From: a virus
Lineage: Duplodnaviria > Heunggongvirae > Uroviricota > Caudoviricetes
Direction: 5' to 3' (one strand)
IMG/VR virus record: IMGVR_UViG_2740892421_000017
Location: 1-13,004 of that record
Length of the DNA stretch: 13,004 nucleotides
The notes under the pieces are model-generated. The model made no database searches. It saw only the letters and a program-made list of their open reading frames with translations, and was not told where the DNA came from. How positions within the stretch are numbered: the stretch's first letter is position 1; each line of letters starts with the position of its first letter. Shown here in pieces: positions 1 to 13,004 of the stretch. The translations under genes and the position numbers were made by a program.

Positions 1-10
1 TTTAATGCCT

Positions 11-43
11 CTTAAATTAAAAGGCCGCCATGGGATAGCGGCC
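11..43 (-). terminator. Putative rho-independent terminator/attenuator downstream of yehD
   Basis: Inverted repeat ggccgc(23-28)...gcggcc(38-43); on the minus strand it is followed by a T-run (complement of cttaaattaaaa at 11-22). Sits just 3' of the yehD stop (80-82). Confidence 0.4.
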
Positions 44-79
44 ATGTTTATTACCTGGAGAAACTTACAATTTTATTTA

Positions 80-622
80 TTAATCCTGCGCCACACGCAT
101 AACCAGAGAAGATAACACATCACCTGATTGCACTGAGTTATCTGTCAGTTTCAGGTATTTTGCTTTAAACGGAATAGCATATTGACCTTCCGCTGTTTTA
201 TAACTCTCAATGTTAAAAGGTGCAGAAACATCCAGGACATCGCTGTTATCACCTAAATAGAGATAGTAACCCACGGTATCGTTGCTACTGGCTATCGCCT
301 TATCGTTACCGGTTATTTTATCGTTGGTAATCAACGAGAGTTTTACACCAGCAACTTCTTTCGGGCAGCTAATTTTTAACATGCTGCTGGTTACACCGAC
401 TGCATCATCATAGGTAGAATATTTAGCTTTACCTTCAAAGACAGTGGTTGGTACAGTCGGCATATTAATACTTACTGAATCACCACCCGCTTCGAATTTA
501 CACGGAGATTCTGCAATATTCCCCTTAATAGTTAATGTTCCGGTATCAACGTCTGCAGCAAATACTCCAGCGCTCATAAAAAAAGAAGAAAAGACAGCGG
601 CAGCAATAATTGAACGTTTCAT
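80..622 (-). CDS. yehD: Fimbrial-like (type 1 pilin family) subunit, 180 aa, with N-terminal signal peptide
   Basis: ORF 80..622 (-). N-terminus MKRSIIAAAVFSSFFMSAGVFAADV is a typical Sec signal peptide; the rest resembles fimbrial major subunits. Sequence and gene order (yehD-yehE-mrp-metG) match the E. coli K-12 yeh locus as I recall it. Confidence 0.85.
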   Translation of the reverse strand: MKRSIIAAAVFSSFFMSAGVFAADVDTGTLTIKGNIAESPCKFEAGGDSVSINMPTVPTTVFEGKAKYSTYDDAVGVTSSMLKISCPKEVAGVKLSLITNDKITGNDKAIASSNDTVGYYLYLGDNSDVLDVSAPFNIESYKTAEGQYAIPFKAKYLKLTDNSVQSGDVLSSLVMRVAQD

Positions 623-846
623 AATATGTTCCTTAATAAAATTTATTTTTGGTTGTTAAGAGTCTGTATCTCTTGGAAACAAATTTCTCACATCAAAAAA
701 GTTGCCGCAATGTAAACACATTGTTTTATTGATTTAAAACAAATTAACCATTGCAATATAAATACAACAAATATTTAAGAGTATTAACTATTTATCGCAT
801 CTATCAATTAATGTAGATTTATGTAAATGGTATTGTTGATATCAAT
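623..846. promoter_or_regulatory. AT-rich intergenic region upstream of yehD (probable fimbrial operon promoter/regulatory region)
   Basis: About 220 bp of strongly AT-rich sequence directly upstream of the yehD start on the minus strand. No specific -10/-35 assigned. Confidence 0.35.
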
Positions 847-885
847 AAAAAAGCCGAAATCATTTATATAAATGATTTCGGCTTT
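847..885 (-). terminator. Rho-independent terminator downstream of yehE (bidirectional-capable)
   Basis: Perfect 30-bp palindrome gccgaaatcatttatataaatgatttcggc (853-882), flanked by an A-run (847-852, giving a U-run on the minus strand) and ttt (883-885). Confidence 0.6.
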
Positions 886-914
886 CTAAATGCAATTAAA
901 ATCAGGTTGCCAAA

Positions 915-1196
915 TTAATCGTAGCGATTTAACACGATTCGACGTTTGCTATCGCTACCTGCAACAACCACTTCTGTCGTTACACCTTTGACGGGCGAAG
1001 AAAACAGATGACGGGTGTCAACATTATACGTTAACTGACCACAATGCTGTTGAGGTTGACCATTAACCATAGCCATACTGCATGTTGGGGGACTGATCCT
1101 GCCATTAATCGCTAATGTGGCAGTCTCTGAAGAGAACGCGGGAGAAGCCAATCCATAGGCAAGAAAAATAATTCCTGACAGCCAATACTTATTCAT
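915..1196 (-). CDS. yehE: Small secreted protein of unknown function (YehE-like, DUF2574-type), 93 aa
   Basis: ORF 915..1196 (-) begins MNKYWLSGIIFLAYGLASPAFS (signal peptide). Position between yehD and mrp matches E. coli K-12 synteny. Confidence 0.75.
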   Translation of the reverse strand: MNKYWLSGIIFLAYGLASPAFSSETATLAINGRISPPTCSMAMVNGQPQQHCGQLTYNVDTRHLFSSPVKGVTTEVVVAGSDSKRRIVLNRYD

Positions 1197-1384
1197 TGAA
1201 CGTTATCCCTGTAGTAAAGGTTATGCCTGGATAGAATGAGTGCATAACAAACTATAGCTGTACATCCACTACACAGCCACGAAGGATGATAATGAAGCAT
1301 TGCCTGTACGATCAATCGACTTTGTAGAGTTTCGGACGAAGGTCCGCAGAATATTCGCAGTATTAAATAAGTGTTCATTAATGC

Positions 1385-1428
1385 GGCAAAAACAAATACA
1401 CCGCATCAATATAACATCTCTGCGGTGT
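1385..1428 (-). terminator. Rho-independent terminator of mrp (copy 1)
   Basis: Hairpin acaccgca(1398-1405)...tgcggtgt(1421-1428); on the minus strand it is followed by atttgtttttgcc (complement of 1385-1397). Lies about 30 nt 3' of the mrp stop at 1459-1461. Confidence 0.55.
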
Positions 1429-1458
1429 ATGAAGAATAACCAGAATGGTTAATAGGCG

Positions 1459-2568
1459 TTAGACCGCGCGGAAGGAAATCTCGCCTGGAATGACTTCACC
1501 CTGCCAGTAGAGCTGAGCTGCAACGCGGTCAGCCAGCTGGCGGTAGATAGCGGTAAATTCGCTCTCCGGACGGCTGATAACCGTTGGCGTGCCTTTATCG
1601 AGATCCTCACGTAAGGAGATGTGTAACGGCATCTGCCCCAGCAGCTGTGTGTGGTATTTTTCAGCCAGTTTCTCAGCACCACCGGTACCGAAAATCGGTT
1701 CATGGTGACCACAGTTACTGCAAATATGCACACTCATGTTCTCGACAATACCAAGCACCGGAACCTCGACTTTCTCGAACATCACAATGCCTTTTTTCGC
1801 ATCGATCAACGCGATGTCCTGCGGGGTGGTGACCACGACTGCACCAGTTACTGGAATGTTTTGCGCCAGCGTCAATTGAATGTCACCGGTGCCTGGCGGC
1901 ATATCAAGCACCAGATAGTCGAGATCCGGCCACAAGGTTTCCTGCAACATCTGCATTAACGCCTTGCTCGCCATCGGTCCACGCCACACCATCGCATTGT
2001 CGTCAGTGACCAGATAACCAATTGAATTGGTTGCCAGGCCATGAGACATAATCGGTGCCATATGGGTACCGTCCGGCGAAGTTGGACGCTGATTTTCTGC
2101 GCCCAGCATGGTGGGAATTGATGGGCCGTAGATATCGGCGTCCAGAATGCCGACTTTCGCCCCTTCCGCCGCCAGTGCCAGCGCCAGGTTTACCGCCGTG
2201 GAGGATTTACCCACGCCGCCTTTACCGGAACTGACCGCAATGATGTTCTTCACACCATTAATACCCGGCTGATTCTTCACGCGTTTTAAGGTGGCGATAT
2301 TGTGCGACAGTTTCCAGTCGATAGCTTTCGCCCCGGTGATACGCAGCAGTTCGGCGCTACATTGCTCTTTTAACTCTTCAAACGCGCTATGCCAGACGAA
2401 TGGCATAACCAGTTCCACATGCAACGTGTCGTCCATCCAGGCGACATGGTGCAACGCTTTCAGCGTGGTGAGGTTATGCTTCAGGGTTGGGTGCTGAAAA
2501 TTGGCCAGTGTCCCGGCGACCATTGCGCGCAAGGCTTCTGGTGATTTGGCCTGGGATTGTTCGTTCAT
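1459..2568 (-). CDS. mrp: Mrp/ApbC family iron-sulfur cluster carrier ATPase, 369 aa (copy 1)
   Basis: Translation from the MNEQSQAKSPEALRAMVAGT start contains the deviant Walker A/P-loop SSGKGGVGKSS and the CSNCGH cysteine motif, as in E. coli Mrp/ApbC. GGAG Shine-Dalgarno lies upstream of the ATG at 2566-2568. The ORF-track start at 2598 (MVYLYKKGVG...) was rejected as an upstream extension. Confidence 0.95.
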   Translation of the reverse strand: MNEQSQAKSPEALRAMVAGTLANFQHPTLKHNLTTLKALHHVAWMDDTLHVELVMPFVWHSAFEELKEQCSAELLRITGAKAIDWKLSHNIATLKRVKNQPGINGVKNIIAVSSGKGGVGKSSTAVNLALALAAEGAKVGILDADIYGPSIPTMLGAENQRPTSPDGTHMAPIMSHGLATNSIGYLVTDDNAMVWRGPMASKALMQMLQETLWPDLDYLVLDMPPGTGDIQLTLAQNIPVTGAVVVTTPQDIALIDAKKGIVMFEKVEVPVLGIVENMSVHICSNCGHHEPIFGTGGAEKLAEKYHTQLLGQMPLHISLREDLDKGTPTVISRPESEFTAIYRQLADRVAAQLYWQGEVIPGEISFRAV

Positions 2569-2699
2569 CCCGACTCCTTTTTTGTATAAATAAACCATCA
2601 GCTGATAGTTTACCTGAAGAATATAGAGAAGTACTTACTTAACATTTTCCCATTTGGTACTATCTAACCCCTTTTCACTATTAAGAAGTAATGCCTACT
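2569..2699. promoter_or_regulatory. Divergent mrp/metG promoter region (copy 1)
   Basis: 131-bp AT-rich intergenic region between the divergently transcribed mrp and metG starts. Confidence 0.4.
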
Positions 2700-3621
2700 A
2701 TGACTCAAGTCGCGAAGAAAATTCTGGTGACGTGCGCACTGCCGTACGCTAACGGCTCAATCCACCTCGGCCATATGCTGGAGCACATCCAGGCTGATGT
2801 CTGGGTCCGTTACCAGCGAATGCGCGGCCACGAGGTCAACTTCATCTGCGCCGACGATGCCCACGGTACACCGATCATGCTGAAAGCTCAGCAGCTTGGT
2901 ATCACCCCGGAGCAGATGATTGGCGAAATGAGTCAGGAGCATCAGACTGATTTCGCAGGCTTTAACATCAGCTATGACAACTATCACTCGACGCACAGCG
3001 AAGAGAACCGCCAGTTGTCAGAACTTATCTACTCTCGCCTGAAAGAAAACGGTTTTATTAAAAACCGCACCATCTCTCAGCTGTACGATCCGGAAAAAGG
3101 CATGTTCCTGCCGGACCGTTTTGTGAAAGGCACCTGCCCGAAATGTAAATCCCCGGATCAATACGGCGATAACTGCGAAGTCTGCGGCGCGACCTACAGC
3201 CCGACTGAACTGATCGAGCCGAAATCGGTGGTTTCTGGCGCTACGCCGGTAATGCGTGATTCTGAACACTTCTTCTTTGATCTGCCCTCTTTCAGCGAAA
3301 TGTTGCAGGCATGGACCCGCAGCGGTGCGTTGCAGGAGCAGGTGGCAAATAAAATGCAGGAGTGGTTTGAATCTGGCCTGCAACAGTGGGATATCTCCCG
3401 CGACGCCCCTTACTTCGGTTTTGAAATTCCGAACGCGCCGGGCAAATATTTCTACGTCTGGCTGGACGCACCGATTGGCTACATGGGTTCTTTCAAGAAT
3501 CTGTGCGACAAGCGCGGCGACAGCGTAAGCTTCGATGAATACTGGAAGAAAGACTCCACCGCCGAGCTGTACCACTTCATCGGTAAAGATATTGTTTACT
3601 TCCACAGCCTGTTCTGGCCTG
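2700..3621 (+). CDS. metG: Methionyl-tRNA synthetase, 5' fragment (first ~307 codons), cut off by the N-run
   Basis: Translation [31 protein letters not shown]... carries the class I aaRS HIGH-type motif ([11 protein letters not shown]) and is co-linear with the full-length copy at 10747..12780 as far as ...YFHSLFWP. Sequence after the N-run is unrelated to metG. Confidence 0.9.
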
Positions 3622-3631
3622 NNNNNNNNNN
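3622..3631. other. Run of 10 N: assembly gap / scaffold junction
   Basis: Ten consecutive n characters in the sequence; flanking sequence is unrelated on the two sides (metG on the left, unknown ORF on the right). Confidence 0.95.
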
Positions 3632-3997
3632 ATGTTCGCGGGTGAGTTCGTCCGCAGCGGTGCCAAAAACTACCTTGAGCTGGATTACAACGTCCCTGCA
3701 ATTGGCGATTTCGTCGTTACCATCCAACGCAAAGAAGGTAAGACGCCAGGTGAACGCGTCGCAGAGCTTGAGGCCGTTGTGGATCAGCGTAACGGAGAGT
3801 GTGACCGTTTGATCAGCGAGCTTCATGCACTTCGGGAAGAAAGAATATGCGAGGGTAGTAATACACGTAATGCAGCGGATATCTACTTCCAGTTAGTTGA
3901 GGAATGCCAGATTCCACCAGGTGGCTCTCTTGTCGATTACGTCAGACATTTAATGGCGGAAGTTAACTCCAGCCATAAAGATGGTGAGGTGCGCTGA
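3632..3997 (+). CDS. Hypothetical protein, probably 5'-truncated by the gap (at least 121 aa)
   Basis: ORF begins at the first ATG right after the N-run; contains a predicted coiled-coil stretch (ERVAELEAVVDQRNGECDRLISELHALREER). Its stop overlaps the next start (TGATG at 3995-3999). Confidence 0.5.
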   Translation: MFAGEFVRSGAKNYLELDYNVPAIGDFVVTIQRKEGKTPGERVAELEAVVDQRNGECDRLISELHALREERICEGSNTRNAADIYFQLVEECQIPPGGSLVDYVRHLMAEVNSSHKDGEVR

Positions 3998-4377
3998 TGT
4001 TTGGCATTGATGCACAGCGTATAGCCGCTTTTGCAAAAAGTCCTCTTGATAATCCCTTGTCTCGTAGTGAGCAAATGGCACTGGCAAGGCTTTTTCTTCA
4101 CATTCAAAAACAGGCAGACATTTTCAATAACATGCCTAATCAACCTATTCTGGATGGTCACATCCAGATGGTCATTAACAGTCATGAGAAAGGCTGGGCT
4201 GCAATCGTCCCCTGCACAATTACATACAGGTTGGCGAAAGAGGTTCAAGAGTTTCGAAAAGTCAGTGTCGAATCAGAGTCTACCAAAGCCGCAATAAACA
4301 CTCTTATTCGCATGGGGTTCACATGGGACGGTGGAGCTTACTGGCAAGCACCTCAACCCATTTTATCCGGCAATTAG
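3997..4377 (+). CDS. Hypothetical protein, 126 aa
   Basis: ORF 3997..4377, start overlapping the upstream stop; no family recognised by eye. Confidence 0.55.
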   Translation: MFGIDAQRIAAFAKSPLDNPLSRSEQMALARLFLHIQKQADIFNNMPNQPILDGHIQMVINSHEKGWAAIVPCTITYRLAKEVQEFRKVSVESESTKAAINTLIRMGFTWDGGAYWQAPQPILSGN

Positions 4378-4407
4378 GCGCTACAAATCCTTCTGCATGA
4401 ATAAATA

Positions 4408-4428
4408 AAGGCCATAACTTATGGCCTT
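4408..4428. terminator. Putative hairpin/terminator after the 3632-4377 gene pair
   Basis: Inverted repeat aaggccat(4408-4415)...atggcctt(4421-4428) with A/T-rich flanks on both sides. U-tract is imperfect on the plus strand. Confidence 0.3.
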
Positions 4429-4515
4429 AAATAAATTGTTTTCTACCTTTTCTTATTTGTGAAAATAAACCAGCACTTGGTAGTGCTTATGTAACAGCAA
4501 AGAAGAGAAAAACAC

Positions 4516-4971
4516 ATGAGTAACAAAATCGAAAATCCCGTAGTTCTCATTCACAAGCGCGAGAACCACGACTCCTATGCGGTGGCGATCACCAATGGGA
4601 GTCACGATTTTTACGATGGCCTGCTAATGGCCTCAGTGTCGCCTGATGAGGCAGACAACTCTTTTGCCGTCTTCGCTATGGTTGGTTACTACATGGCTGC
4701 CGAAATTGAGAAGTTGCGGGCGCAAAGAGACGCATTAGCGGCGGAGAATGCAGCCCTGAAAGAATCTGAGCGAGCATTCGATGCGATGTGTGCCGAGGAA
4801 CACGGAGATAATTGGGTTAGCGAATTAACGGAGACTCCAGCCACCGATGCTTTTCTGGCTGAAGTACGTGCGCAGGGCGTGGAGATGTTTGCTGAGTGCG
4901 CATACACACTTGAACATCATGATCACGCAGTAGCCTTCGCCGCTGAGCTTCGCAAAGGAAATAAACAGTGA
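4516..4971 (+). CDS. Hypothetical protein with central coiled coil, 151 aa (possibly Ea22-like prophage early protein)
   Basis: ORF with purine-rich region upstream (agaagagaaaaacacATG). Coiled-coil-like segment AAEIEKLRAQRDALAAENAALKESERAF. First gene of a chain of overlapping ORFs. Confidence 0.6.
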   Translation: MSNKIENPVVLIHKRENHDSYAVAITNGSHDFYDGLLMASVSPDEADNSFAVFAMVGYYMAAEIEKLRAQRDALAAENAALKESERAFDAMCAEEHGDNWVSELTETPATDAFLAEVRAQGVEMFAECAYTLEHHDHAVAFAAELRKGNKQ

Positions 4972-5570
4972 ATGAGATTTACTACCTGACGTTACGTGAA
5001 CGTTATTCACCAAAACCAGCGCCTAAATGCTCTGTTTGTGGCGAGGAAATGTCAATACAGCGCATATCTGGAGCACATGTTGTTTATGCCTGTTCCGGTG
5101 AGGGTGATGACGGATATTTTAAGATAGGGCGTACTTTTGCAGACGAACATTATGAAAAATCACGCGTAACAGTAGTTGATGCTAGTGATCCCGATGTGAT
5201 TGCACTGCTGGACGAACTGGATAAAAGACAGCAACACATCCGACGTCTTGAGCAGGAGAACGTAGAGATGGTCCTAACGCTTGAGAAGCTGCGTGTTGAG
5301 CTTGAGGAGACAAAATCAAAACTCAACGAACAGCGTGAATATTACGAAGGTGTTATCTCGGATGGGAGTAAGCGCATAGCAGAGTTAGAAAGTGATTCTC
5401 AGGCACAAAAGTTAGTTGAAGCAATCATTGTTGCGATAGAAAACGAACAGGAACGTCTTTTTGATGAAGATTACCTAATGGATTCGAAAGAATGCATTGA
5501 CGTAATTCGTGAAGAAGTAAAGCGATGGAATGATTCCCGCGCCGCTGGCATTCGCATCAAAGGAGAGTGA
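4968..5570 (+). CDS. Hypothetical protein, 200 aa, GTG start; N-terminal CxxC...H...C motif plus coiled coil
   Basis: GTG start at 4968 overlaps the upstream TGA (GTGA); AAGGAA Shine-Dalgarno 7 nt upstream. Motif [22 protein letters not shown], then a heptad-like region [39 protein letters not shown]. Confidence 0.6.
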
Positions 5571-5571
5571 G

Positions 5572-5895
5572 ATGACCACATCGCATTCTGCAATTACCCA
5601 GGAAAAAGCCTTCCACATACTCGAACGATTAGAGGCGCTTGCTACGGAGGAGGATATATCCCCGGAGAAACTGGTTGAGTTCAGCCGTGTGATATTGCGT
5701 CGCAAGAACGATATGGAGCGGCTGACATCTGGCGCTCCATCCTTATCAGTCAGGCGAACACTTTGTTGCAGCTTCTGCAACAAATCCCAGTACGCCGTCA
5801 AAAAGTTAATTGCTGGGGACGCCGTTTTCATCTGCGACGAGTGTGTGGATGTGTGCAACAGAATTATCCGGGGAGAGAAAGAGGGATCAGCATGA
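5572..5895 (+). CDS. ClpX-type C4 zinc-finger domain protein, 107 aa
   Basis: C-terminal segment [38 protein letters not shown] closely matches the N-terminal zinc-binding domain of E. coli ClpX ([39 protein letters not shown], from memory). Strong GGAG Shine-Dalgarno 6 nt upstream of the ATG at 5572. The ORF-track start at 5530 lies inside the upstream gene and was rejected. Confidence 0.7.
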
Positions 5896-6422
5896 AATTT
5901 TCCAAATTTTCTGAGTTGGTGAATCGTATTTTGTCCAACAACCACAGCCATCGTCGCGATATGGATGTAACGATCGTTGTTCATTCGCCTGGTCGCATCG
6001 GTTCAACACCATCAGTTGAGGTTCAGTCAATTCAGGCGGGTTTTGATTGGGATGCCGGGCAAGTGATGATTTTTCCAGCACAGCCACTGACCACGCTAAC
6101 ACCAGAGCAGGTTGCTGATATCACTGATAGTGTGCGCAAAGGTCAGTCTTGGCACGCGTATCAGGAATACAAGAAGCATAAAGAGCAGTTGGAAAAATTG
6201 TCGATGGAGTTGGAAGGCGCTAAACAGCGGGAAAAAGATCTGTTTATGGAAAATGTTCGACTTAAGTCAGGTATAGCCGGTCTGATACACCTCGGTATTC
6301 GATATGCGGATGTTGAGGTCATGAAAATTGCTGGAGATGCCCAGCTTTCTACTCCATGCACTGACAGCATCATAAACAGCATTGCAGCAGGCATTTTCAC
6401 CAAAGAGGGGGCAGCACGATGA
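5892..6422 (+). CDS. Hypothetical protein with coiled coil, 176 aa
   Basis: ATG at 5892 overlaps the upstream stop (ATGA); GAGGG Shine-Dalgarno upstream. Coiled-coil-like [35 protein letters not shown]. The ORF-track start at 5763 was rejected as an upstream extension. Confidence 0.6.
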
Positions 6423-6604
6423 GAACACTAGAGGTTCGCGCTGAAGACGTAATCCCTGGTGATGTGCTCATAACATCTAAAGGTCAACAATGTGCGGTTA
6501 AATCTTTTTGGATGGAAAATGACAAAGTGACTCTGTTCGGTACGGATGGTTCCGAAACTGATTATGACTACGACGAATTGCTTGTTGTTGAGAGAGCTGC
6601 CTAA
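6419..6604 (+). CDS. Small hypothetical protein, 61 aa
   Basis: ATGA start/stop overlap with the upstream gene and TAATG overlap with the downstream gene; part of the coupled chain. Confidence 0.5.
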   Translation: MRTLEVRAEDVIPGDVLITSKGQQCAVKSFWMENDKVTLFGTDGSETDYDYDELLVVERAA

Positions 6605-7257
6605 TGACCACCGTTAACAATAAGAAATGCTACCCAAGCGAGAAATATCTTAATGAGCTGATCACCAACATTGAGTTTGCTGCAAGAGCACCAGTTGAAG
6701 TCGTGAGAGCGATTGCAGCAGAGCTACAGAAGCACCGTAAGGCCTATGCCAATACAGCCGCATCTAAGGATGGTTGGATAAGCTGTAGTGAGCGAATGCC
6801 TGTAATTGGCGAGCTAAATTGGAGAACTAGTTTTCCTTTACTGGTTACGTGTGAGATCGGCGTTATACCTGCTTATTACGGCTTTGTGAGCGTTAATGGT
6901 GATAGGCATTATGGCTTTATGGAGAGTCTTAAATACGGAGACGCTAACGGCAACCATCCTCAAACTAATGAATATGGTCTGATTAGCAATGTCACACACT
7001 GGATGCCACTACCAGAACGCCGCAGGAGTCGAACAGTGAATAATGCAGAGTTATTTCAGAAAATATCGGCTCTCGCGACTGAATGCCACGCTATAGCATC
7101 TGAGCTTGATGTTGGCGATGAACGAACCGAGATGTTCGAAATATACAGTGTGCTGCGCAATCTCTGTCGGCGTGGCTACGCCACTCAAGTAGGGCGAATG
7201 ACTAACCCACTACTCTCATCCTGTGATGAGGATGACTCGGATGAGGATGACGAATGA
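6604..7257 (+). CDS. DUF551-like phage protein with acidic C-terminal tail, 217 aa
   Basis: Segment DGWISCSERMP...THWMPLPERR resembles the conserved core of the DUF551 family common in lambdoid prophage early regions (from memory). C-terminus is SSCDEDDSDEDDE. Confidence 0.6.
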   Translation: MTTVNNKKCYPSEKYLNELITNIEFAARAPVEVVRAIAAELQKHRKAYANTAASKDGWISCSERMPVIGELNWRTSFPLLVTCEIGVIPAYYGFVSVNGDRHYGFMESLKYGDANGNHPQTNEYGLISNVTHWMPLPERRRSRTVNNAELFQKISALATECHAIASELDVGDERTEMFEIYSVLRNLCRRGYATQVGRMTNPLLSSCDEDDSDEDDE

Positions 7258-7637
7258 TGCATAAATCAGTAGCCGGTGAGTTTCAGAAGGAAGTCGATAA
7301 TACCACTGATCTATTGGACGATATTTTAAGCATTCTCGCGCTGCTTGAGGCTGGCGATTGGTCAGAACATTGCACTAAAACAGAGCTAGGCGGTCGGCTT
7401 GAAAGAGAGATTACACGACTGATTAGCGATGCCCAAAATGATTTGTCACCTGAGCATCTCCCCTGCGATGTAGTTCTTGTGCCAGGGATGAGGATACACG
7501 AAGGCGTCAGAACGAAAACATTATTAACCGCATTACAGAGAAGAGCCGAACTAAGCTCGCGGATAAAGTTGATGCCATCCAAAATATTTGATGTCGTCAA
7601 ATTTACGCCATCGCAACATACTGAGAGAGATAAATGA
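7254..7637 (+). CDS. Hypothetical protein, 127 aa
   Basis: ORF whose start overlaps the upstream stop (ATGATG) and whose stop overlaps the next start (ATGA). Confidence 0.55.
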   Translation: MMHKSVAGEFQKEVDNTTDLLDDILSILALLEAGDWSEHCTKTELGGRLEREITRLISDAQNDLSPEHLPCDVVLVPGMRIHEGVRTKTLLTALQRRAELSSRIKLMPSKIFDVVKFTPSQHTERDK

Positions 7638-8260
7638 GCACGGTAGCGAAAGATCTCACAGAAGATATTCTCAATAAAATTATTGCTGGTGCAAATACCT
7701 CGCTTGAGCAACTTCTTGCGTTAGCACTGAGAGCCGAACGTCGAGACAGAAATCGTTTTTATGAGCGATTACCAGGGAAGCGACCAGATAGATCGGATGA
7801 AGAAGGTTGCGATATAGACTACATGGAGCCTTCAGAGATTTATCAACTTGGTAAAGATGACGGCTGGAACGCTTATCACGATGCTGTGATGAAGTTGGAT
7901 GAAAAAGTTAAACCTCTTTCTCGACCGGTAGATCACGGTTTCCGCGATAACTGCGAATGCTCTAGTTGCCAGACCACGGCCCGTATTTGTTCCGAATTGA
8001 CAGATAAGTCCAGCCTAATCTACGAAGTTAATGTAGGCGGTAATACATGGGTCGAATGCACAAGAGCTGCATACGTAAGAGCAAAAGACAAGGGTGAATT
8101 AACCAGAGTTGTTACCAATCACCCAAATAATGAGCTTAAAGATCACCAGATTCGAGAACTGGTGAACGAGTTGAGAGATATTGCGGTTCAGTACCACGGA
8201 ACGCAGCAATTGCGGGAGAAGATTGCCAGAGCAGTGAACAACTCAGTCCGTAAAAAATAA
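7634..8260 (+). CDS. Hypothetical protein with cysteine cluster (CxCxxC-x6-C), 208 aa
   Basis: Last gene of the coupled chain. Motif DNCECSSCQTTARICSE suggests a small metal-binding knuckle. Followed by a hairpin at 8278-8302. Confidence 0.6.
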   Translation: MSTVAKDLTEDILNKIIAGANTSLEQLLALALRAERRDRNRFYERLPGKRPDRSDEEGCDIDYMEPSEIYQLGKDDGWNAYHDAVMKLDEKVKPLSRPVDHGFRDNCECSSCQTTARICSELTDKSSLIYEVNVGGNTWVECTRAAYVRAKDKGELTRVVTNHPNNELKDHQIRELVNELRDIAVQYHGTQQLREKIARAVNNSVRKK

Positions 8261-8277
8261 GCAATAGTACGATAAAG

Positions 8278-8302
8278 AGGCCCCATGCTCTTGATGGGGC
8301 CT
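8278..8302. terminator. Putative transcription-terminating hairpin after the operon
   Basis: 9-bp stem aggccccat(8278-8286)/atggggcct(8294-8302) with a 7-nt loop. No clear U-tract on the plus strand, so a rho-independent call is tentative. Confidence 0.35.
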
Positions 8303-8369
8303 GTAGCAACTAGCGTTATGGACGCTGGTTTACGTACTCAATGATCGCTTTGATAATCGCGAACATCGG

Positions 8370-8665
8370 CGGCACGATTTTGAACAGTAAGTTAACCATA
8401 ACAGGCCTCACTTAGTTTTATCGCGCCTAGCTGCAAATACCTTTGGGCTTGCCTTTGCAGTTGCAATATCTGTAGTCGCCAGATACTTACGGCACGATTT
8501 CGAGTTAAGGTAAGGTTTTAGAGTCACCAAAAACCTGGACTTAAATCTTCTTTGAGAACAACGATGTTTAGTAAATGGTCATTATTACCTGGTATGACCA
8601 CTCAACCTTTCTTGATGAATCCAGTACATTCGGTTAATCTTAATTCAGTCGCCAGATACTTATGG
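8370..8665. repeat. Mosaic short direct repeats in a noncoding region
   Basis: Repeat Y, agtcgccagatactta[c/t]gg, at 8474-8492 and 8647-8665. Repeat X, cggcacgattt[t/c]ga, at 8370-8383 and 8490-8503. The first Y copy abuts the second X copy (Y+X composite at 8474-8503). Confidence 0.6.
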
Positions 8666-8671
8666 CTCAGG

Positions 8672-8730
8672 AACAGAGCCGCAAACTCTGTTTCCTTTTA
8701 AAAAGCCCAGCCTAGTCAACTGGGCTTTTT
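8672..8730 (+). terminator. Tandem rho-independent terminators (second one bidirectional-capable)
   Basis: Hairpin aacagag(8673-8679)-ccgcaaa-ctctgtt(8687-8693) followed by tccttttaaaaa; then hairpin agcccag(8704-8710)-cctagtcaa-ctgggct(8720-8726) followed by ttttt (8726-8730) and preceded by an A-run. Confidence 0.6.
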
Positions 8731-9025
8731 AATGTCTATTTTTAACCCAACATACCCTCAATACTGCAACATCAGTGTCTTGCGAATTAAGATAGTGTGA
8801 ATAGATTTTTCATGCAAGTGCATAAGCCTGTGGATAACTCAGGAAGGAAAAAGTGACTTCTGCGCACTTTAGACCGGACAAGGCGTTCGAAAAAGTCAAT
8901 GGGAAGAAAAAATTTGTTAAAAATAACGTTTGTTTGAATTGTATATATTTATGCCTTTCAATAGTTAGCATCTTATTAACATCTTTTTTAAGAGATAGAG
9001 TTCAAAAATATATAGCTTCAATATA

Positions 9026-9045
9026 TACTGTATGTGTATACAGTA
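9026..9045. promoter_or_regulatory. LexA (SOS) box overlapping the putative promoter of the UmuD'-like gene
   Basis: TACTGTATGTGTATACAGTA, a palindromic CTGT-N8-ACAG element matching the E. coli LexA consensus TACTGT(AT)4ACAGTA. Plausible -35 ttcaaa (9001-9006) and -10 tatact (9024-9029); box ends 16 nt before the ATG at 9062. Confidence 0.75.
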
Positions 9046-9061
9046 TTAAGAGGCGAGTATT

Positions 9062-9451
9062 ATGGGCTTCCCTTCTCCTGCGGCGGATTATGCTGAGAGC
9101 CGTATTTCTCTTGATCAGCAGATAATTAGACATCCTTCAGCGACCTACTTCATGAGGGCAGCTGATAGTCATCATCGTGAGGGAATATTACAGGGTGCAT
9201 TGCTGGTGGTCGATTCCTCACTTACCCCGGTTGATGGTTCTCTGCTTGTATGCGCTCTGGATGGGGAATATCGCGTAAAAAGATACCGGAAGTACCCACG
9301 TCAGCATCTGGAGGATTTAAGAACCGGTAAGAAGGAAGCATTGCCAAAGGATGACGATGGATGCACGGGCAGCAATGCCGTGTTTGGTGTGATCACTCAC
9401 ATTATCAACGACGCAAGAAGTGGCGAGTTTGATGATTGTCCCGTGATGTAG
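9062..9451 (+). CDS. UmuD'-like protein (peptidase S24 / LexA C-terminal-domain fold), naturally lacking the N-terminal arm, 129 aa
   Basis: Begins [30 protein letters not shown], aligning with E. coli UmuD from Gly25 onward (...VQC/[29 protein letters not shown]...). In-frame TAA at 9047-9049 excludes an N-terminal extension. AAGAGG Shine-Dalgarno at 9048-9053. Ser/Lys dyad region retained but altered (AADSHH, RVKRY). Confidence 0.75.
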   Translation: [129 protein letters not shown]

Positions 9452-9463
9452 GAGAACTGATTA

Positions 9464-9487
9464 GGCGGTGCAATGCACCGCCTTTTT
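9464..9487. terminator. Bidirectional terminator between the convergent UmuD'-like gene and mrp (copy 2)
   Basis: Stem ggcggtg(9464-9470)/caccgcc(9476-9482) with loop caatg, followed by ttttt (9483-9487); immediately adjacent to the mrp stop codon (9489-9491). Confidence 0.6.
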
Positions 9488-9488
9488 A

Positions 9489-10589
9489 TCACACTGCGCG
9501 GAATGCGATTTCGCCAGGTATTACTTCACCTTGCCAATACATTTGGGCAGCAACGCGATCTGCGAGGTCACGATAAATAGCCGTAAATTCACTATCTGGA
9601 CGACTAATAACGGTTGGTGTTCCGTTATCCAGATCTTCACGAAGAGAGATATGAAGTGGCATTTGGCCTAACAACTGCGTGTTGTATTTCTCGGCCAGTT
9701 TCTCTGCGCCACCGGTGCCAAAAATTGGCTCGTGATGACCGCAGTTACTGCAAATATGCACACTCATGTTTTCGACGATACCAAGTACCGGCACTTCGAC
9801 TTTTTCGAACATCACAATGCCTTTCTTCGCATCGATCAGCGCGATGTCTTGCGGCGTAGTTACCACAACAGCACCAGTTACAGGAATGTTCTGCGCCAGC
9901 GTCAACTGAATATCACCAGTGCCCGGCGGCATATCGAGAACAAGATAGTCCAGATCAGGCCACAATGTTTCCTGCAACATCTGCATTAACGCCTTGCTCG
10001 CCATCGGTCCACGCCACACCATTGCATTGTCGTCGGTGACCAGATAACCAATAGAGTTGGTTGCCAGGCCATGAGACATGATAGGTGCCATGTGAGTACC
10101 GTCAGGTGAGGTTGGACGTTGGTTTTCCGCGCCCAGCATGGTTGGAATTGATGGACCATAGATATCGGCATCCAAAATACCAACTTTCGCACCTTCAGCA
10201 GCCAACGCCAGTGCCAGGTTTACCGCCGTGGAGGATTTACCCACGCCGCCCTTGCCTGAGCTGACGGCGATAATGTTCTTAACGCCATTAATGCCTGGTT
10301 GGTTTTTGACGCGCTTAAGCGTGGCAATGTTGTACGACAGCTTCCAGTCAATAGCCTTTGCGCCAGTGATACGGAGCAGATCACCACTACATTGCTCTTT
10401 CAGGTCTTCAAAAGGCTTATTCCACACGAAAGGCATGATTAGTTCGACATGCAGTGTGTCATCCATCAACGCAACATGGTGTAACGCTTTAAGCGTAGTC
10501 AGGTTGTGTTTCAGGGTTGGGTGCTGAAAATTAGCCAGCGTACCGGCTACCATTGCTCTCAGGGCATCCGGCGATTTGGACTCGCTCAT
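9489..10589 (-). CDS. mrp: Mrp/ApbC family iron-sulfur cluster carrier ATPase, 366 aa (copy 2, diverged ortholog)
   Basis: Translation MSESKSPDALRAMVAGT... with P-loop SSGKGGVGKSS and CSNCGH motif; co-linear with copy 1 but with about 20 amino-acid differences. GGAG Shine-Dalgarno upstream. Confidence 0.95.
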   Translation of the reverse strand: MSESKSPDALRAMVAGTLANFQHPTLKHNLTTLKALHHVALMDDTLHVELIMPFVWNKPFEDLKEQCSGDLLRITGAKAIDWKLSYNIATLKRVKNQPGINGVKNIIAVSSGKGGVGKSSTAVNLALALAAEGAKVGILDADIYGPSIPTMLGAENQRPTSPDGTHMAPIMSHGLATNSIGYLVTDDNAMVWRGPMASKALMQMLQETLWPDLDYLVLDMPPGTGDIQLTLAQNIPVTGAVVVTTPQDIALIDAKKGIVMFEKVEVPVLGIVENMSVHICSNCGHHEPIFGTGGAEKLAEKYNTQLLGQMPLHISLREDLDNGTPTVISRPDSEFTAIYRDLADRVAAQMYWQGEVIPGEIAFRAV

Positions 10590-10746
10590 CCCGTCTCCTT
10601 TATTTTAATTTGCGCAATTGTCGCCTTGTAGTGTACTCCAGCTACGACATTTAATCATTTATGAGAAATGCTGTTATCACATGGCAGACATAAGGCCATT
10701 TTGTTACTATCAAGCCCCTTTTCACTACAAAGAAGTAATGCCTACT
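10590..10746. promoter_or_regulatory. Divergent mrp/metG promoter region (copy 2)
   Basis: 157-bp intergenic region between divergent mrp and metG starts; sequence differs from copy 1 except near the metG start. Confidence 0.4.
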
Positions 10747-12780
10747 ATGACCCAAGTCGCGAAGAAAATTCTGGTGACGTGCGCGCTGCCGTACGCTAAC
10801 GGCTCAATCCACCTCGGCCATATGCTGGAGCACATCCAGGCTGATGTCTGGGTTCGTTACCAGCGAATGCGCGGCCACGAGGTTAATTTCATCTGTGCCG
10901 ACGATGCCCACGGTACGCCGATCATGCTGAAAGCACAGCAGCTTGGTATCACACCGGAGCAGATGATTGGCGAAATGAGTCAGGAACACCAGACTGATTT
11001 CGCAGGCTTTAACATCAGCTATGACAACTATCACTCGACGCACAGCGAAGAGAACCGTCAGTTGTCTGAGCTTATCTATACTCGCCTGAAAGAGAACGGT
11101 TTTATTAAAAACCGCACTATCTCTCAGTTGTACGACCCGGAAAAAGGCATGTTCCTGCCGGATCGTTTTGTAAAAGGCACCTGCCCGAAATGTAAAGCGC
11201 CAGATCAATACGGCGATAACTGTGAAGTCTGCGGCGCAACATATAGCCCGACTGAATTGATCGAGCCGAAATCGGTGGTTTCTGGCGCTACCCCGGTAAT
11301 GCGTGATTCCGAACACTTCTTCTTTGATCTGCCTTCTTTCAGCGAAATGTTGCAGGCATGGACCCGCAGCGGCGCGTTGCAGGAGCAGGTGGCGAACAAA
11401 ATGCAGGAATGGTTTGAATCCGGCCTGCAACAGTGGGATATCTCCCGAGATGCGCCCTACTTCGGTTTTGAAATTCCGAACGCGCCGGGCAAATATTTCT
11501 ACGTCTGGCTGGACGCGCCGATTGGCTACATGGGTTCCTTCAAGAATCTGTGCGACAAGCGCGGCGATACCACCAGCTTCGATGAATACTGGAAGAAAGA
11601 CTCCACCGCCGAGCTGTACCACTTCATCGGTAAAGATATTGTTTACTTCCACAGCCTGTTCTGGCCTGCCATGCTGGAAGGCAGCAACTTCCGCAAGCCG
11701 ACCAACCTGTTTGTTCATGGCTATGTGACGGTGAACGGCGCGAAGATGTCCAAGTCTCGCGGCACCTTTATTAAAGCCAGCACCTGGCTGAATCATTTTG
11801 ACGCTGACAGCCTGCGTTACTACTACACTGCGAAACTCTCTTCGCGCATTGATGATATCGATCTCAACCTGGAGGATTTCGTTCAGCGTGTGAATGCCGA
11901 TATCGTGAATAAAGTGGTTAACCTGGCCTCCCGCAACGCAGGCTTTATCAACAAGCGTTTTGACGGTGTGCTGGCAAGCGAGCTGGCTGACCCTGAGCTG
12001 TACAAAACCTTTACCGATGCCGCTGAAGTGATTGGTGAAGCGTGGGAAAGCCGTGAATTTGGTAAAGCAGTGCGCGAAATCATGGCACTGGCTGACCTGG
12101 CTAACCGCTATGTCGACGAGCAGGCTCCGTGGGTAGTCGCAAAACAGGAAGGTCGCGATGCTGACCTGCAGGCGATTTGCTCAATGGGCATCAACCTGTT
12201 CCGCGTGCTGATGACTTACCTGAAGCCGGTACTGCCGAAACTGACCGAGCGTGCAGAAGCCTTCCTCAATACGGAACTGACCTGGGATGGTATCCAGCAA
12301 CCGCTGCTGGACCACAAAGTGAATCCGTTCAAGGCACTGTATAACCGCATCGATATGAAGCAGGTTGAAGCACTGGTGGAAGCGTCTAAAGAAGAAGTGA
12401 AAGCAGCTGCCGCGCCAGTTACTGGCCCACTGGCAGATGATCCGATTCAGGAAACCATCACCTTTGACGACTTCGCCAAAGTTGACCTGCGCGTAGCGCT
12501 GATCGAAAACGCAGAGTTTGTTGAAGGTTCTGACAAACTGCTGCGCCTGACACTGGATCTCGGCGGTGAAAAACGCAATGTCTTCTCCGGTATTCGTTCT
12601 GCCTACCCGGATCCGCAGGCACTGATTGGTCGTCACACCATTATGGTGGCTAACCTGGCACCACGTAAAATGCGCTTTGGAATCTCCGAAGGCATGGTGA
12701 TGGCTGCCGGTCCAGGCGGGAAAGATATCTTCCTGCTAAGCCCGGATGCTGGTGCTAAACCGGGTCATCAGGTGAAATAA
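10747..12780 (+). CDS. metG: Methionyl-tRNA synthetase, complete, 677 aa
   Basis: Translation from [26 protein letters not shown] contains the HIGH-type motif and KMSKS (GAKMSKSRG) and ends ...[10 protein letters not shown], matching E. coli MetG length and sequence as I recall it. The ORF-track start at 10618 is an upstream extension and was rejected. Confidence 0.95.
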
Positions 12781-12790
12781 TCCCCCTTCA

Positions 12791-12819
12791 AGGCGCTGCA
12801 TCGACAGCGCCTTTTCTTT
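12791..12819 (+). terminator. Rho-independent terminator of metG
   Basis: Stem aggcgctg(12791-12798)/cagcgcct(12805-12812) with loop catcga, followed by tttcttt (12813-12819). Confidence 0.7.
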
Positions 12820-12920
12820 ATAAATTCCTAAAGTTGTTTTCTTGCGATTTTGTCTCTCTCTAACCCGCATAAATACTGGTAGCATCTGCATTCAACTGGA
12901 TAAAATTACAGGGATGCAGA

Positions 12921-13004
12921 ATGAGACACTTTATCTATCAGGACGAAAAATCACATAAATTCTGGGCGGTGGAGCAACAGGGAAACGAGTTGCATATCAG
13001 TTGG
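12921..13004 (+). CDS. molR: WGR-domain protein (MolR-like), first 28 codons only; continues past window end
   Basis: ATG at 12921; translation MRHFIYQDEKSHKFWAVEQQGNELHISW resembles the N-terminus of the E. coli gene downstream of metG (molR/yehH region), from memory. Confidence 0.55.
   Translation, partial: MRHFIYQDEKSHKFWAVEQQGNELHISW

Follow-up and report, generated by a model that had tools for sequence, protein, structure and literature searches.

Eight overlapping genes in an accessory slot of an SSU5-like phage-plasmid: very probably one permutation of independent cassettes

The DNA analysed here, called the window throughout, is a stretch of 13,004 nucleotides (nt) from the IMG/VR virus record IMGVR_UViG_2740892421_000017 (Caudoviricetes, positions 1 to 13,004), and its central block, 4516-8260, holds eight open reading frames (ORFs) on the plus strand, which we call p1 to p8. 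A previous sequence-only reading had described these ORFs as chained by overlapping stop and start codons, and the description is accurate: all eight are present where it placed them, and every motif that it quoted was found (GTGA at 4968, TGAgATG at 5568-5574, ATGA at 5892, 6419 and 7634, TAATG at 6602-6606, and ATGATG at 7254-7259). From p1 to p8 the junction spacings are -4, +1, -4, -4, -1, -4 and -4 nt, and a Shine-Dalgarno-like (SD-like) purine run precedes most of the starts. The genes of the block and the two genes on its left are listed below (aa, amino acids).

3632-3997, plus strand: pA, Ead/Ea22-type, conserved left flank; the 3' 366 nt of a 705-nt gene, cut by a run of N
3997-4377, plus strand: pB, Eaa-like, 126 aa, conserved left flank (phrog_10451, E 5e-82)
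4516-4971, plus strand: p1, 151 aa, an EaE-like N-terminal part and then a coiled coil (phrog_492, E 1e-43)
4968-5570, plus strand: p2, 200 aa, Ead/Ea22 family, GTG start (Pfam PF13935)
5572-5895, plus strand: p3, 107 aa, helical over the N-terminal 60 aa or so, followed by a ClpX-type C4 zinc-binding domain (PF06689)
5892-6422, plus strand: p4, 176 aa, an N-terminal domain and then an Ea22-type coiled coil (phrog_6026)
6419-6604, plus strand: p5, 61 aa, the most persistent cassette (phrog_15283, E 2e-46)
6604-7257, plus strand: p6, 217 aa, a three-part mosaic (N-terminal segment of phrog_6847, DUF551, C-terminal 73 aa of phrog_4220)
7254-7637, plus strand: p7, 127 aa, without a known domain (phrog_19524, E 3e-88)
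7634-8260, plus strand: p8, 208 aa, with a cysteine cluster (C107, C109, C112, C119, C141; phrog_21749, E 1e-148)

Each of the eight ORFs matches the PHROG database, always in families of unknown function and usually in several of them over different parts of the protein, and the 268 variable sites found among close relatives fall mainly on the third codon position (149, compared with 80 on the first and 39 on the second). These two results together indicate that the eight frames are coding. Two antisense ORFs on the minus strand, 5475-5984 and 7283-7711, were considered as genes and rejected, as neither has any family match. That the block is decaying, non-functional DNA with ORFs that are mere remnants is therefore very unlikely: all eight frames are open, the third-position bias is strong overall, SD-like sequences stand at the start codons, and identical proteins are maintained in plasmids and prophages, although in-frame fusions and deletions are frequent, the DUF551 part carries a pseudogene flag from RefSeq in several relatives, and the substitution pattern of p6 is relaxed (11/10/16). 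The same tight packing is also found upstream, where pA and pB overlap by 1 nt and are followed by a 138-nt gap with two hairpins. Because the packing continues into pA and pB, a count of eight does not delimit a natural unit.

The window is chimeric, made up of chromosomal DNA, 10 N and phage-plasmid DNA. Its positions 1-3621 are Escherichia coli chromosome (yehD, yehE, apbC/mrp and the first 931 nt of metG), the 10 N at 3622-3631 stand between the two kinds of DNA, and 3632 to about 11550 is 97-100% identical to pECOH89/SSU5-like phage-plasmids of about 107-111 kb. The plasmid pECOH89, which was published as an SSU5-like "phage-like plasmid" (PMC3999498), is among the matching plasmids in the DNA comparison, and over 3632-9488 the identity is 97-99% both to E. 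coli phage-plasmids of about 106-111 kb and to the phages CMS-2020a, Cyrano and PhiR41_1. One IMG/VR contig is 100% identical to 3632-11374 and goes on leftward as phage-plasmid DNA; thus, what the window joins at the N run does not represent the block's natural surroundings. In identical and near-identical relatives, plasmids of 107-111 kb, the slot is bordered on the left by a DUF4942 gene, pA and pB, and on the right by humD, apbC and metG. All 11 annotated relatives, pECOH89 among them, have the flanking genes pA, pB and humD at 93-100% identity, as in an accessory slot of phage-plasmids. The location of an exo-xis region, between exo/bet, erf or abc and the xis-int genes of an integrated lambdoid prophage, does not apply here. 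Judged by these identities, the host element of the block is a pECOH89/SSU5-like phage-plasmid and not a lambdoid prophage. The sequence-only reading had judged the block to fit the early-left ea/b region of lambdoid prophages; the gene families (Ead/Ea22, EaA-like, EaE-like, DUF551) agree with such an origin, but the element does not.

The left flank is well conserved. What remains of pA matches phrog_8364 (E 6e-76) over profile positions 114-234 of 234, and the gene is present in 11 of 11 relatives at 93-98% identity, being full-length in two of them (L001 and L017). pB is found at 100% coverage in 37 of the 38 loci of the family and is named Eaa-like in phage Cyrano.

The content of the slot, by comparison, is highly variable. 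In a survey of 38 loci of the same family, in which each protein was scored by tblastn, 32 loci spanned the whole region from pB to humD, and these 32 showed 21 different presence/absence patterns of the eight genes. The full set was found once, in an IMG/VR contig identical to the window. Full-length copies were counted in 12 loci for p1, 1 for p2, 14 for p3, 17 for p4, 26 for p5, 20 for p6, 14 for p7 and 15 for p8, whereas pA and pB occurred in essentially all loci and humD in every locus reaching that far. Among 11 sampled relatives, p2 was never full-length, p3 was absent in three, and p7 and p8 were fused in three. Broader comparisons gave the same picture: a piece of the block is held by 2328 of 5426 complete E. 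coli genomes at the DNA level, and at least 80% of it by only 8 (best 88%); 582 plasmid records of PLSDB match at the DNA level and 17 hold at least 80% (best 89%); and a concatenated protein query matched 478 phage records, one of which holds at least 80%. We conclude that the eight ORFs are very probably one arbitrary permutation of independent accessory cassettes in a hypervariable slot of a phage-plasmid.

DNA alignments with the relatives located recurrent breakpoints both at or near gene boundaries (4468/4516, 5570-5572 and 6620-6626) and inside genes (4750, 4887, 5306-5311, 5380, 6207-6222, 6760, 7435 and 7925). At 4468, the homology to relatives carrying an inserted HD-domain gene stops. 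The window joins a left part of one type (L006) to a right part of another (L004) at 5306-5311, and p2 is accordingly a recombinant of two allele types with its crossover at this point. Breakpoints of this kind have also produced in-frame fusions, namely of the p2 N-terminus with the p4 C-terminus, with loss of p3, and of p7 with p8. Only short, chance-level repeats were found among the internal DNA repeats that might drive unequal crossing-over within the block; the homology driving the exchange lies between elements and not in this copy.

The sequence-only reading had taken the tight coupling as a sign of a multi-protein module expressed at fixed ratios, and had offered two outcomes, one coherent host-manipulation system or a set of unrelated morons. 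If the eight proteins were one co-evolving host-manipulation or defence system with ratios set by coupling, one would point to the seven of seven junctions at +1 nt or less, to the several products predicted to be oligomerising coiled coils, and to the linkage of p3 and p4 within the family. However, tight junctions are equally the rule where the gene sets differ: 6 of 8 and 8 of 9 junctions are at +1 nt or less in two relative plasmids with other genes, and 11 of 17 overlap in a lambdoid early-left operon. Seven tight junctions out of seven are therefore unusual for bacterial genes generally and normal for this class of region, and since the overlaps are kept when neighbouring genes are swapped, the coupling reflects a regional packing style rather than a partnership of proteins. 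The inferred fixed-ratio module thus loses its basis. The 21 patterns in 32 relatives, with the full set seen once, also mean that the co-occurrence in other prophages that had been proposed as a check was not found, an outcome which the reading itself had named as refuting; moreover, p2 is essentially unique to this recombinant, each gene or domain occurs separately in unrelated contexts, and the PADLOC defence models gave no match apart from coiled-coil noise. A coherent eight-protein system is thus extremely improbable, and the alternative of unrelated morons is the one that fits both the survey and the separate occurrence of the genes elsewhere.

These other contexts are diverse. The cassettes are found in lambdoid early-left operons, between the anti-RecBCD/Ea22 genes and xis-int, as well as in a nin region and a P1-like plasmid; in P2-like prophages, the variable slot between gpA and the portal gene holds p3 without p4; and single domains of the block occur in lytic Pseudomonas, Aeromonas and T4-like phages. 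True lambdoid early-left operons contain the p7-p8-humD segment at about 99% identity, and the protein accessions there are identical as well. The following prophage copies of the segment were located.

L053, NZ_AP043621.1, 5846-8047: p7-p8-humD segment
L054, NZ_CP190018.1, 5994-8191: p7-p8-humD segment
L016, NZ_CP019259.1, 11395-13047: p7-p8-humD segment

At the level of sequence identity, such copies directly document that integrated prophages and phage-plasmids have exchanged DNA recently, and the comparisons likewise show that the slot is filled by recombination from the lambdoid/P22 ea/exo-xis gene pool. p7 and p8, together with the intergenic toxin candidate described below and humD, show 96-99% identity in lambdoid or cryptic prophages that lie in the chromosome at argW and thrW. 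The chromosomal copies of the p8-humD intergenic region had also been considered as marks of phage-plasmids integrated at metG; this was rejected, as the three that were inspected are lambdoid or cryptic prophages at argW and thrW.

Several points weigh against the view of the block as wholly independent cassettes. p3 and p4 occur together in 14 of 14 loci of the family, and also in the P1-like plasmid, and p7 and p8 mostly travel together, so that p3-p4 and p7-p8 may be two-gene sub-modules. The survey comprised 32 loci of several hundred available, the structure models of p4 and p8 are of too low confidence for a fold search, and the search for a sigma-70-like promoter on the plus strand upstream of p1 found none, which leaves the transcription unit as an inferred one.

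The products themselves are largely mosaic, in agreement with the published build of Ea22, in which the N-terminus and the coiled coil are shared and the C-terminal domains can be exchanged, DUF551 being one "portable" domain (PMC10834534). Pfam thresholds were reached by three of the eight ORFs: p2 (Ead_Ea22), p3 (ClpX zinc finger) and p6 (DUF551). The three coiled-coil proteins that had been noticed by eye are p1, p2 and p4, according to the profile analysis and, for p4, a structure model. p2 is a member of the Ead/Ea22 family, matching PF13935 with 113.3 bits (cut-off 27) over profile positions 2-139 of 139; p1 and p4 stay below the Pfam threshold and have only the coiled-coil part in common with p2, through phrog_368. 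In p1, phrog_368 covers residues 63-151, and residues 56-121 are 51% identical to P22 EaE. In 2408 homologues, the N-terminal domain of p4 is joined to a C-terminus of the DUF551 or Ea22 kind; it also occurs in lytic phages of Pseudomonas and Aeromonas. An AlphaFold2 model of p4, built on a 52-sequence alignment, has a mean predicted local distance difference test (pLDDT) score of 60 and is confident only in the coiled-coil helix, predicted at 71-147, which reaches a pLDDT of 79-91 over residues 91-130. p5 is also present in an O157 lambdoid prophage.

The DUF551-like protein with an acidic tail is p6, whose residues 57-138 match PF04448 with 38.1 bits (cut-off 22), which makes it a member of the family. 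It contains an internal SD sequence, AGGAG, with an in-frame GTG at 7036 (residue 145), and this GTG is the start of a free-standing gene for a 73-aa acidic-tailed protein in relatives (WP_001718095.1, phrog_4220). RefSeq annotates the upstream DUF551 part of p6 as a pseudogene in several plasmids, and the 217-aa frame is open there too. Many relatives have p7 joined in frame to the last 60% of p8 through a deletion between 7435 and 7925, and the identical p7 protein accession is found in a lambdoid prophage. p8, the Cys-cluster protein of the sequence-only reading, ends in a helical tail of about 40 aa that is common to hundreds of DUF551 proteins, and its homologues match only over this tail or over the C-terminal 60%; its AlphaFold2 model (55-sequence alignment, mean pLDDT 55) is confident only for a beta-alpha unit at about 128-165. 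A sequence comparison of p4, p6 and p8 with the PDB gave nothing with E below 0.3, and the NCBIfam search gave nothing beyond the ClpX finger. The defence models of PADLOC-DB returned only two weak LmuB matches (E about 3e-4), both on the coiled coil of p2, and none for the other nine proteins; these matches are coiled-coil noise.

The closest known systems are the exo-xis region of lambda and Stx phages (ea22, ea8.5, orf60a-63) and the ea region of P22 (eaA-eaI), which have the same families (Ead/Ea22, EaE-like, Eaa-like and DUF551), the same one-strand packing with stop/start overlaps, and the same mosaic proteins built of an N-terminus, a coiled coil and a variable C-terminal part. Unlike these regions, the block does not lie between recombination genes and xis-int and has no pL/N context. 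The pECOH89/SSU5-like phage-plasmids of Enterobacteriaceae are 97-100% identical over the flanks and most cassettes and have the same slot and the same humD-apbC-metG neighbourhood, but only one further sequence, the IMG/VR contig, has exactly these eight genes together; in pECOH89 itself, p2 is missing, p7 is fused to p8, and HD-domain and other genes are present. As in the phage accessory regions and hypervariability hotspots described in preprints (Silas et al., 10.1101/2023.04.06.535777; bioRxiv 10.1101/2024.10.15.618418), conserved flanks enclose variable, uncharacterised small genes that are swapped between unrelated phages, with the difference that a connection with defence or counter-defence has so far been made for none of the genes here.

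What such cassettes do singly is a separate matter, for which we weighed two possibilities, neither of them the probable one. By analogy with the exo-xis genes of lambda and Stx phages, the genes might tune the lifestyle of the element, as plasmid prophage or in lytic growth, together with host physiology. Lambda Ea22 biases development toward lysogeny (PMC7093339, PMC10834534), the exo-xis region alters lysogenisation and induction (PMC7093339, PMC3824215, PMC10834534), p2 is a bona fide Ead/Ea22 member whose coiled coil is shared by p1 and p4, and the block adjoins humD, which looks SOS-controlled, with its LexA box at 9026-9045. However, the C-terminal domains that confer specificity differ here from that of lambda Ea22; most of the cassettes are also dispensable across the family, and the tetrameric state and pro-lysogenic activity are known only for the Ea22 of lambda and Stx phages (PMC7093339, PMC10834534). 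A role in lifestyle is thus possible but doubtful.

The other possibility, which we hold to be about equally doubtful, is that of independently acting genes for anti-defence or competition between phages; this would refine the explanation by independent cassettes and is compatible with it. A hypervariable slot between conserved genes is the architecture of phage accessory regions rich in counter-defence genes (bioRxiv 10.1101/2023.04.06.535777), the same cassettes adjoin anti-RecBCD genes in lambdoid prophages, and in relatives the slot also takes up HD-domain, toprim and dATP/dGTP-pyrophosphohydrolase-DUF551 genes. None of the proteins matches a characterised anti-defence factor, however, and the sole characterised homologue, lambda Ea22, is a developmental modulator.

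The independent cassettes are exchanged with co-resident lambdoid, P1-like and P2-like elements at gene boundaries and at short shared coiled-coil stretches, and crossover at such sites explains how genes are swapped, deleted and fused in frame. For their expression and action we propose the following. The array would probably be read within a longer co-directional transcript, with an SD-like sequence for each ORF and stop/start overlaps that would give a compact translation by termination and reinitiation. The products would most likely work singly, each of them a small oligomer that binds a protein of the host or of a rival phage. The Ea22-type members p1, p2 and p4 would be coiled-coil scaffolds with exchangeable end domains, like lambda Ea22, and by analogy with the latter may bias the decision between lysis and lysogeny or maintenance, while p3 would titrate ligands of the ClpX N-domain.

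The last of these deserves separate attention. The ClpX zinc-finger-like protein noticed earlier is p3, which belongs to the PF06689 family (57.4 bits, cut-off 27). Its zinc-binding domain comprises residues 62-102 (nt 5755-5877), of which 28 of 41 (68%) are identical to the zinc-binding domain of E. coli ClpX (PDB 2ds5, E 1e-14), and the CxxC...CxxC zinc ligands are kept, as C66, C69, C88 and C91 align with the ClpX cysteines. p3 is not a full ClpX unfoldase: the models TIGR00382/PRK05342 scored 40-42 bits against cut-offs of 359-371 and matched only at model positions 4-48, with no AAA+ module. Thus, p3 shares with ClpX's N-terminal zinc-binding domain (PDB 1OVX, 2DS5-2DS8) the domain and all four zinc cysteines, but it differs from ClpX in the lack of the AAA+ ATPase, in a unique N-terminal extension of about 60 aa and in being encoded by phages and plasmids. 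The cassette is present among SSU5-like and P1-like phage-plasmids and P2-like prophages. Many records name its homologues "carboxylate--amine ligase"; their domain content is only the ClpX-type zinc finger, and the name is probably a propagated misannotation.

The isolated ClpX domain supplied in trans blocks adaptor-dependent degradation by ClpXP, for example the RssB-dependent degradation of sigma-S (PMC7226468), and the likeness of the p3 finger to that of ClpX makes a decoy role plausible. We therefore speculate, with considerable reserve, that p3 is a mobile decoy of the ClpX zinc-binding domain that selectively switches off adaptor-dependent ClpXP proteolysis. It would dimerise with the ClpX N-domain or compete for the docking motifs of adaptors and substrates (SspB, RssB, UmuD, lambda-O-type signals). 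Sigma-S, the adjacent HumD/UmuD'-like protein, antitoxins or a replication initiator might be stabilised as a result. The literature was searched for ClpX zinc-domain proteins encoded by phages, and no paper on them came up.

The borders of the block also carry structured and regulatory features. The hairpins are the following.

4408-4428, no strand assigned: hairpin in the pB-p1 gap, terminator-like, T run on the minus side
4472-4487, no strand assigned: hairpin in the pB-p1 gap, terminator-like, T run on the minus side
8278-8302, no strand assigned: G+C-rich hairpin closing the block, terminator-like, common to the block and a convergent small minus-strand gene

The hairpins at 4408-4487 may be a partial terminator or an RNA-stability element, and in the pECOH89 copy of the closing hairpin the stem is kept and the loop is shorter. 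The small gene is an unannotated ORF for a hydrophobic peptide of 27 aa, MVNLLFKIVPPMFAIIKAIIEYVNQRP, at 8311-8400 on the minus strand, with the SD sequence AAGTGAGG and the terminator hairpin 8302-8278. Its copy in pECOH89 differs by 9 nt, which amount to six synonymous third-position changes, V2L, K17E and a change of ATG to GTG, and this pattern indicates, as far as sequence comparison goes, a coding gene under purifying selection. Nearby lies a two-hairpin RNA on the plus strand (8652-8733) with a sub-threshold match to the Rfam family AgrB (27.6 bits, gathering score 40); a 20-nt stretch at the 5' end of this RNA (8647-8666) is found again at 8474-8493 and might base-pair with the 5' untranslated region of the 27-aa ORF. 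These features suggest that the ORF and the nearby RNA are a candidate type I toxin-antitoxin pair of the dinQ/agrB-like kind. Profile searches with the peptide gave no family match, and the region was found in 115 of 5426 E. coli genomes, annotated in none of them.

The gene humD (9062-9451) encodes a UmuD'-like S24 peptidase of 129 aa, with its start at the point where cleaved UmuD begins (PF00717, phrog_811). Directly upstream, a near-consensus LexA box, TACTGTATGTGTATACAGTA (9026-9045), overlaps a promoter-like site at 9001-9029, and because of this arrangement humD looks SOS-controlled.

To the right of humD, the phage-plasmid family carries its own copies of apbC and metG directly after humD. 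In the window, these plasmid copies of the host housekeeping genes apbC/mrp and metG occupy 9489-10589 (minus strand) and about 10747-12780 (plus strand); taken jointly, their DNA identity with the chromosomal pair in the window is about 86%; the plasmid apbC is about 83% identical to the chromosomal copy, and the 5' part of metG in a relative plasmid is about 95% identical to chromosomal metG. The right-hand apbC-metG region is of the plasmid type up to about 11550 and then 100% of the chromosome type (3' half of metG and the start of the next gene). Over the roughly 400 nt that contain the switch there is hardly any difference between the two metG copies, and the position of the switch is also that at which the left contig ends; the plasmid-metG-chromosome junction recurs in another, independent IMG/VR contig. 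Either the phage-plasmid has integrated at metG by homologous recombination, or the junction comes from a misassembly induced by the repeat or from a scaffold join.

At the left edge of the slot, an ISEcp1-blaCTX-M-15 unit is inserted in pA and truncates it in several relatives (e.g. L003, NZ_CP095139.1, 1-2482). The variable slot is therefore also a site at which this phage-plasmid family gained a gene for an extended-spectrum beta-lactamase.

As a whole, the block is a mosaic accessory region of a known kind, already annotated in many records, and it opens no new question. A single lead merits a test, namely p3 as a free-standing protein with a ClpX zinc domain: if the decoy idea were true, p3 would represent a new class of anti-protease factor of mobile elements and a useful new mechanism of host takeover. 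A caution also follows, in that chains of overlapping stop and start codons are the default packing in the accessory regions of phages and phage-plasmids and, since the overlaps survive gene swapping, are unusable as evidence for a multi-subunit system. With segments about 99% identical in both, the locus is a clear case of gene flow between integrated lambdoid prophages and extrachromosomal phage-plasmids.

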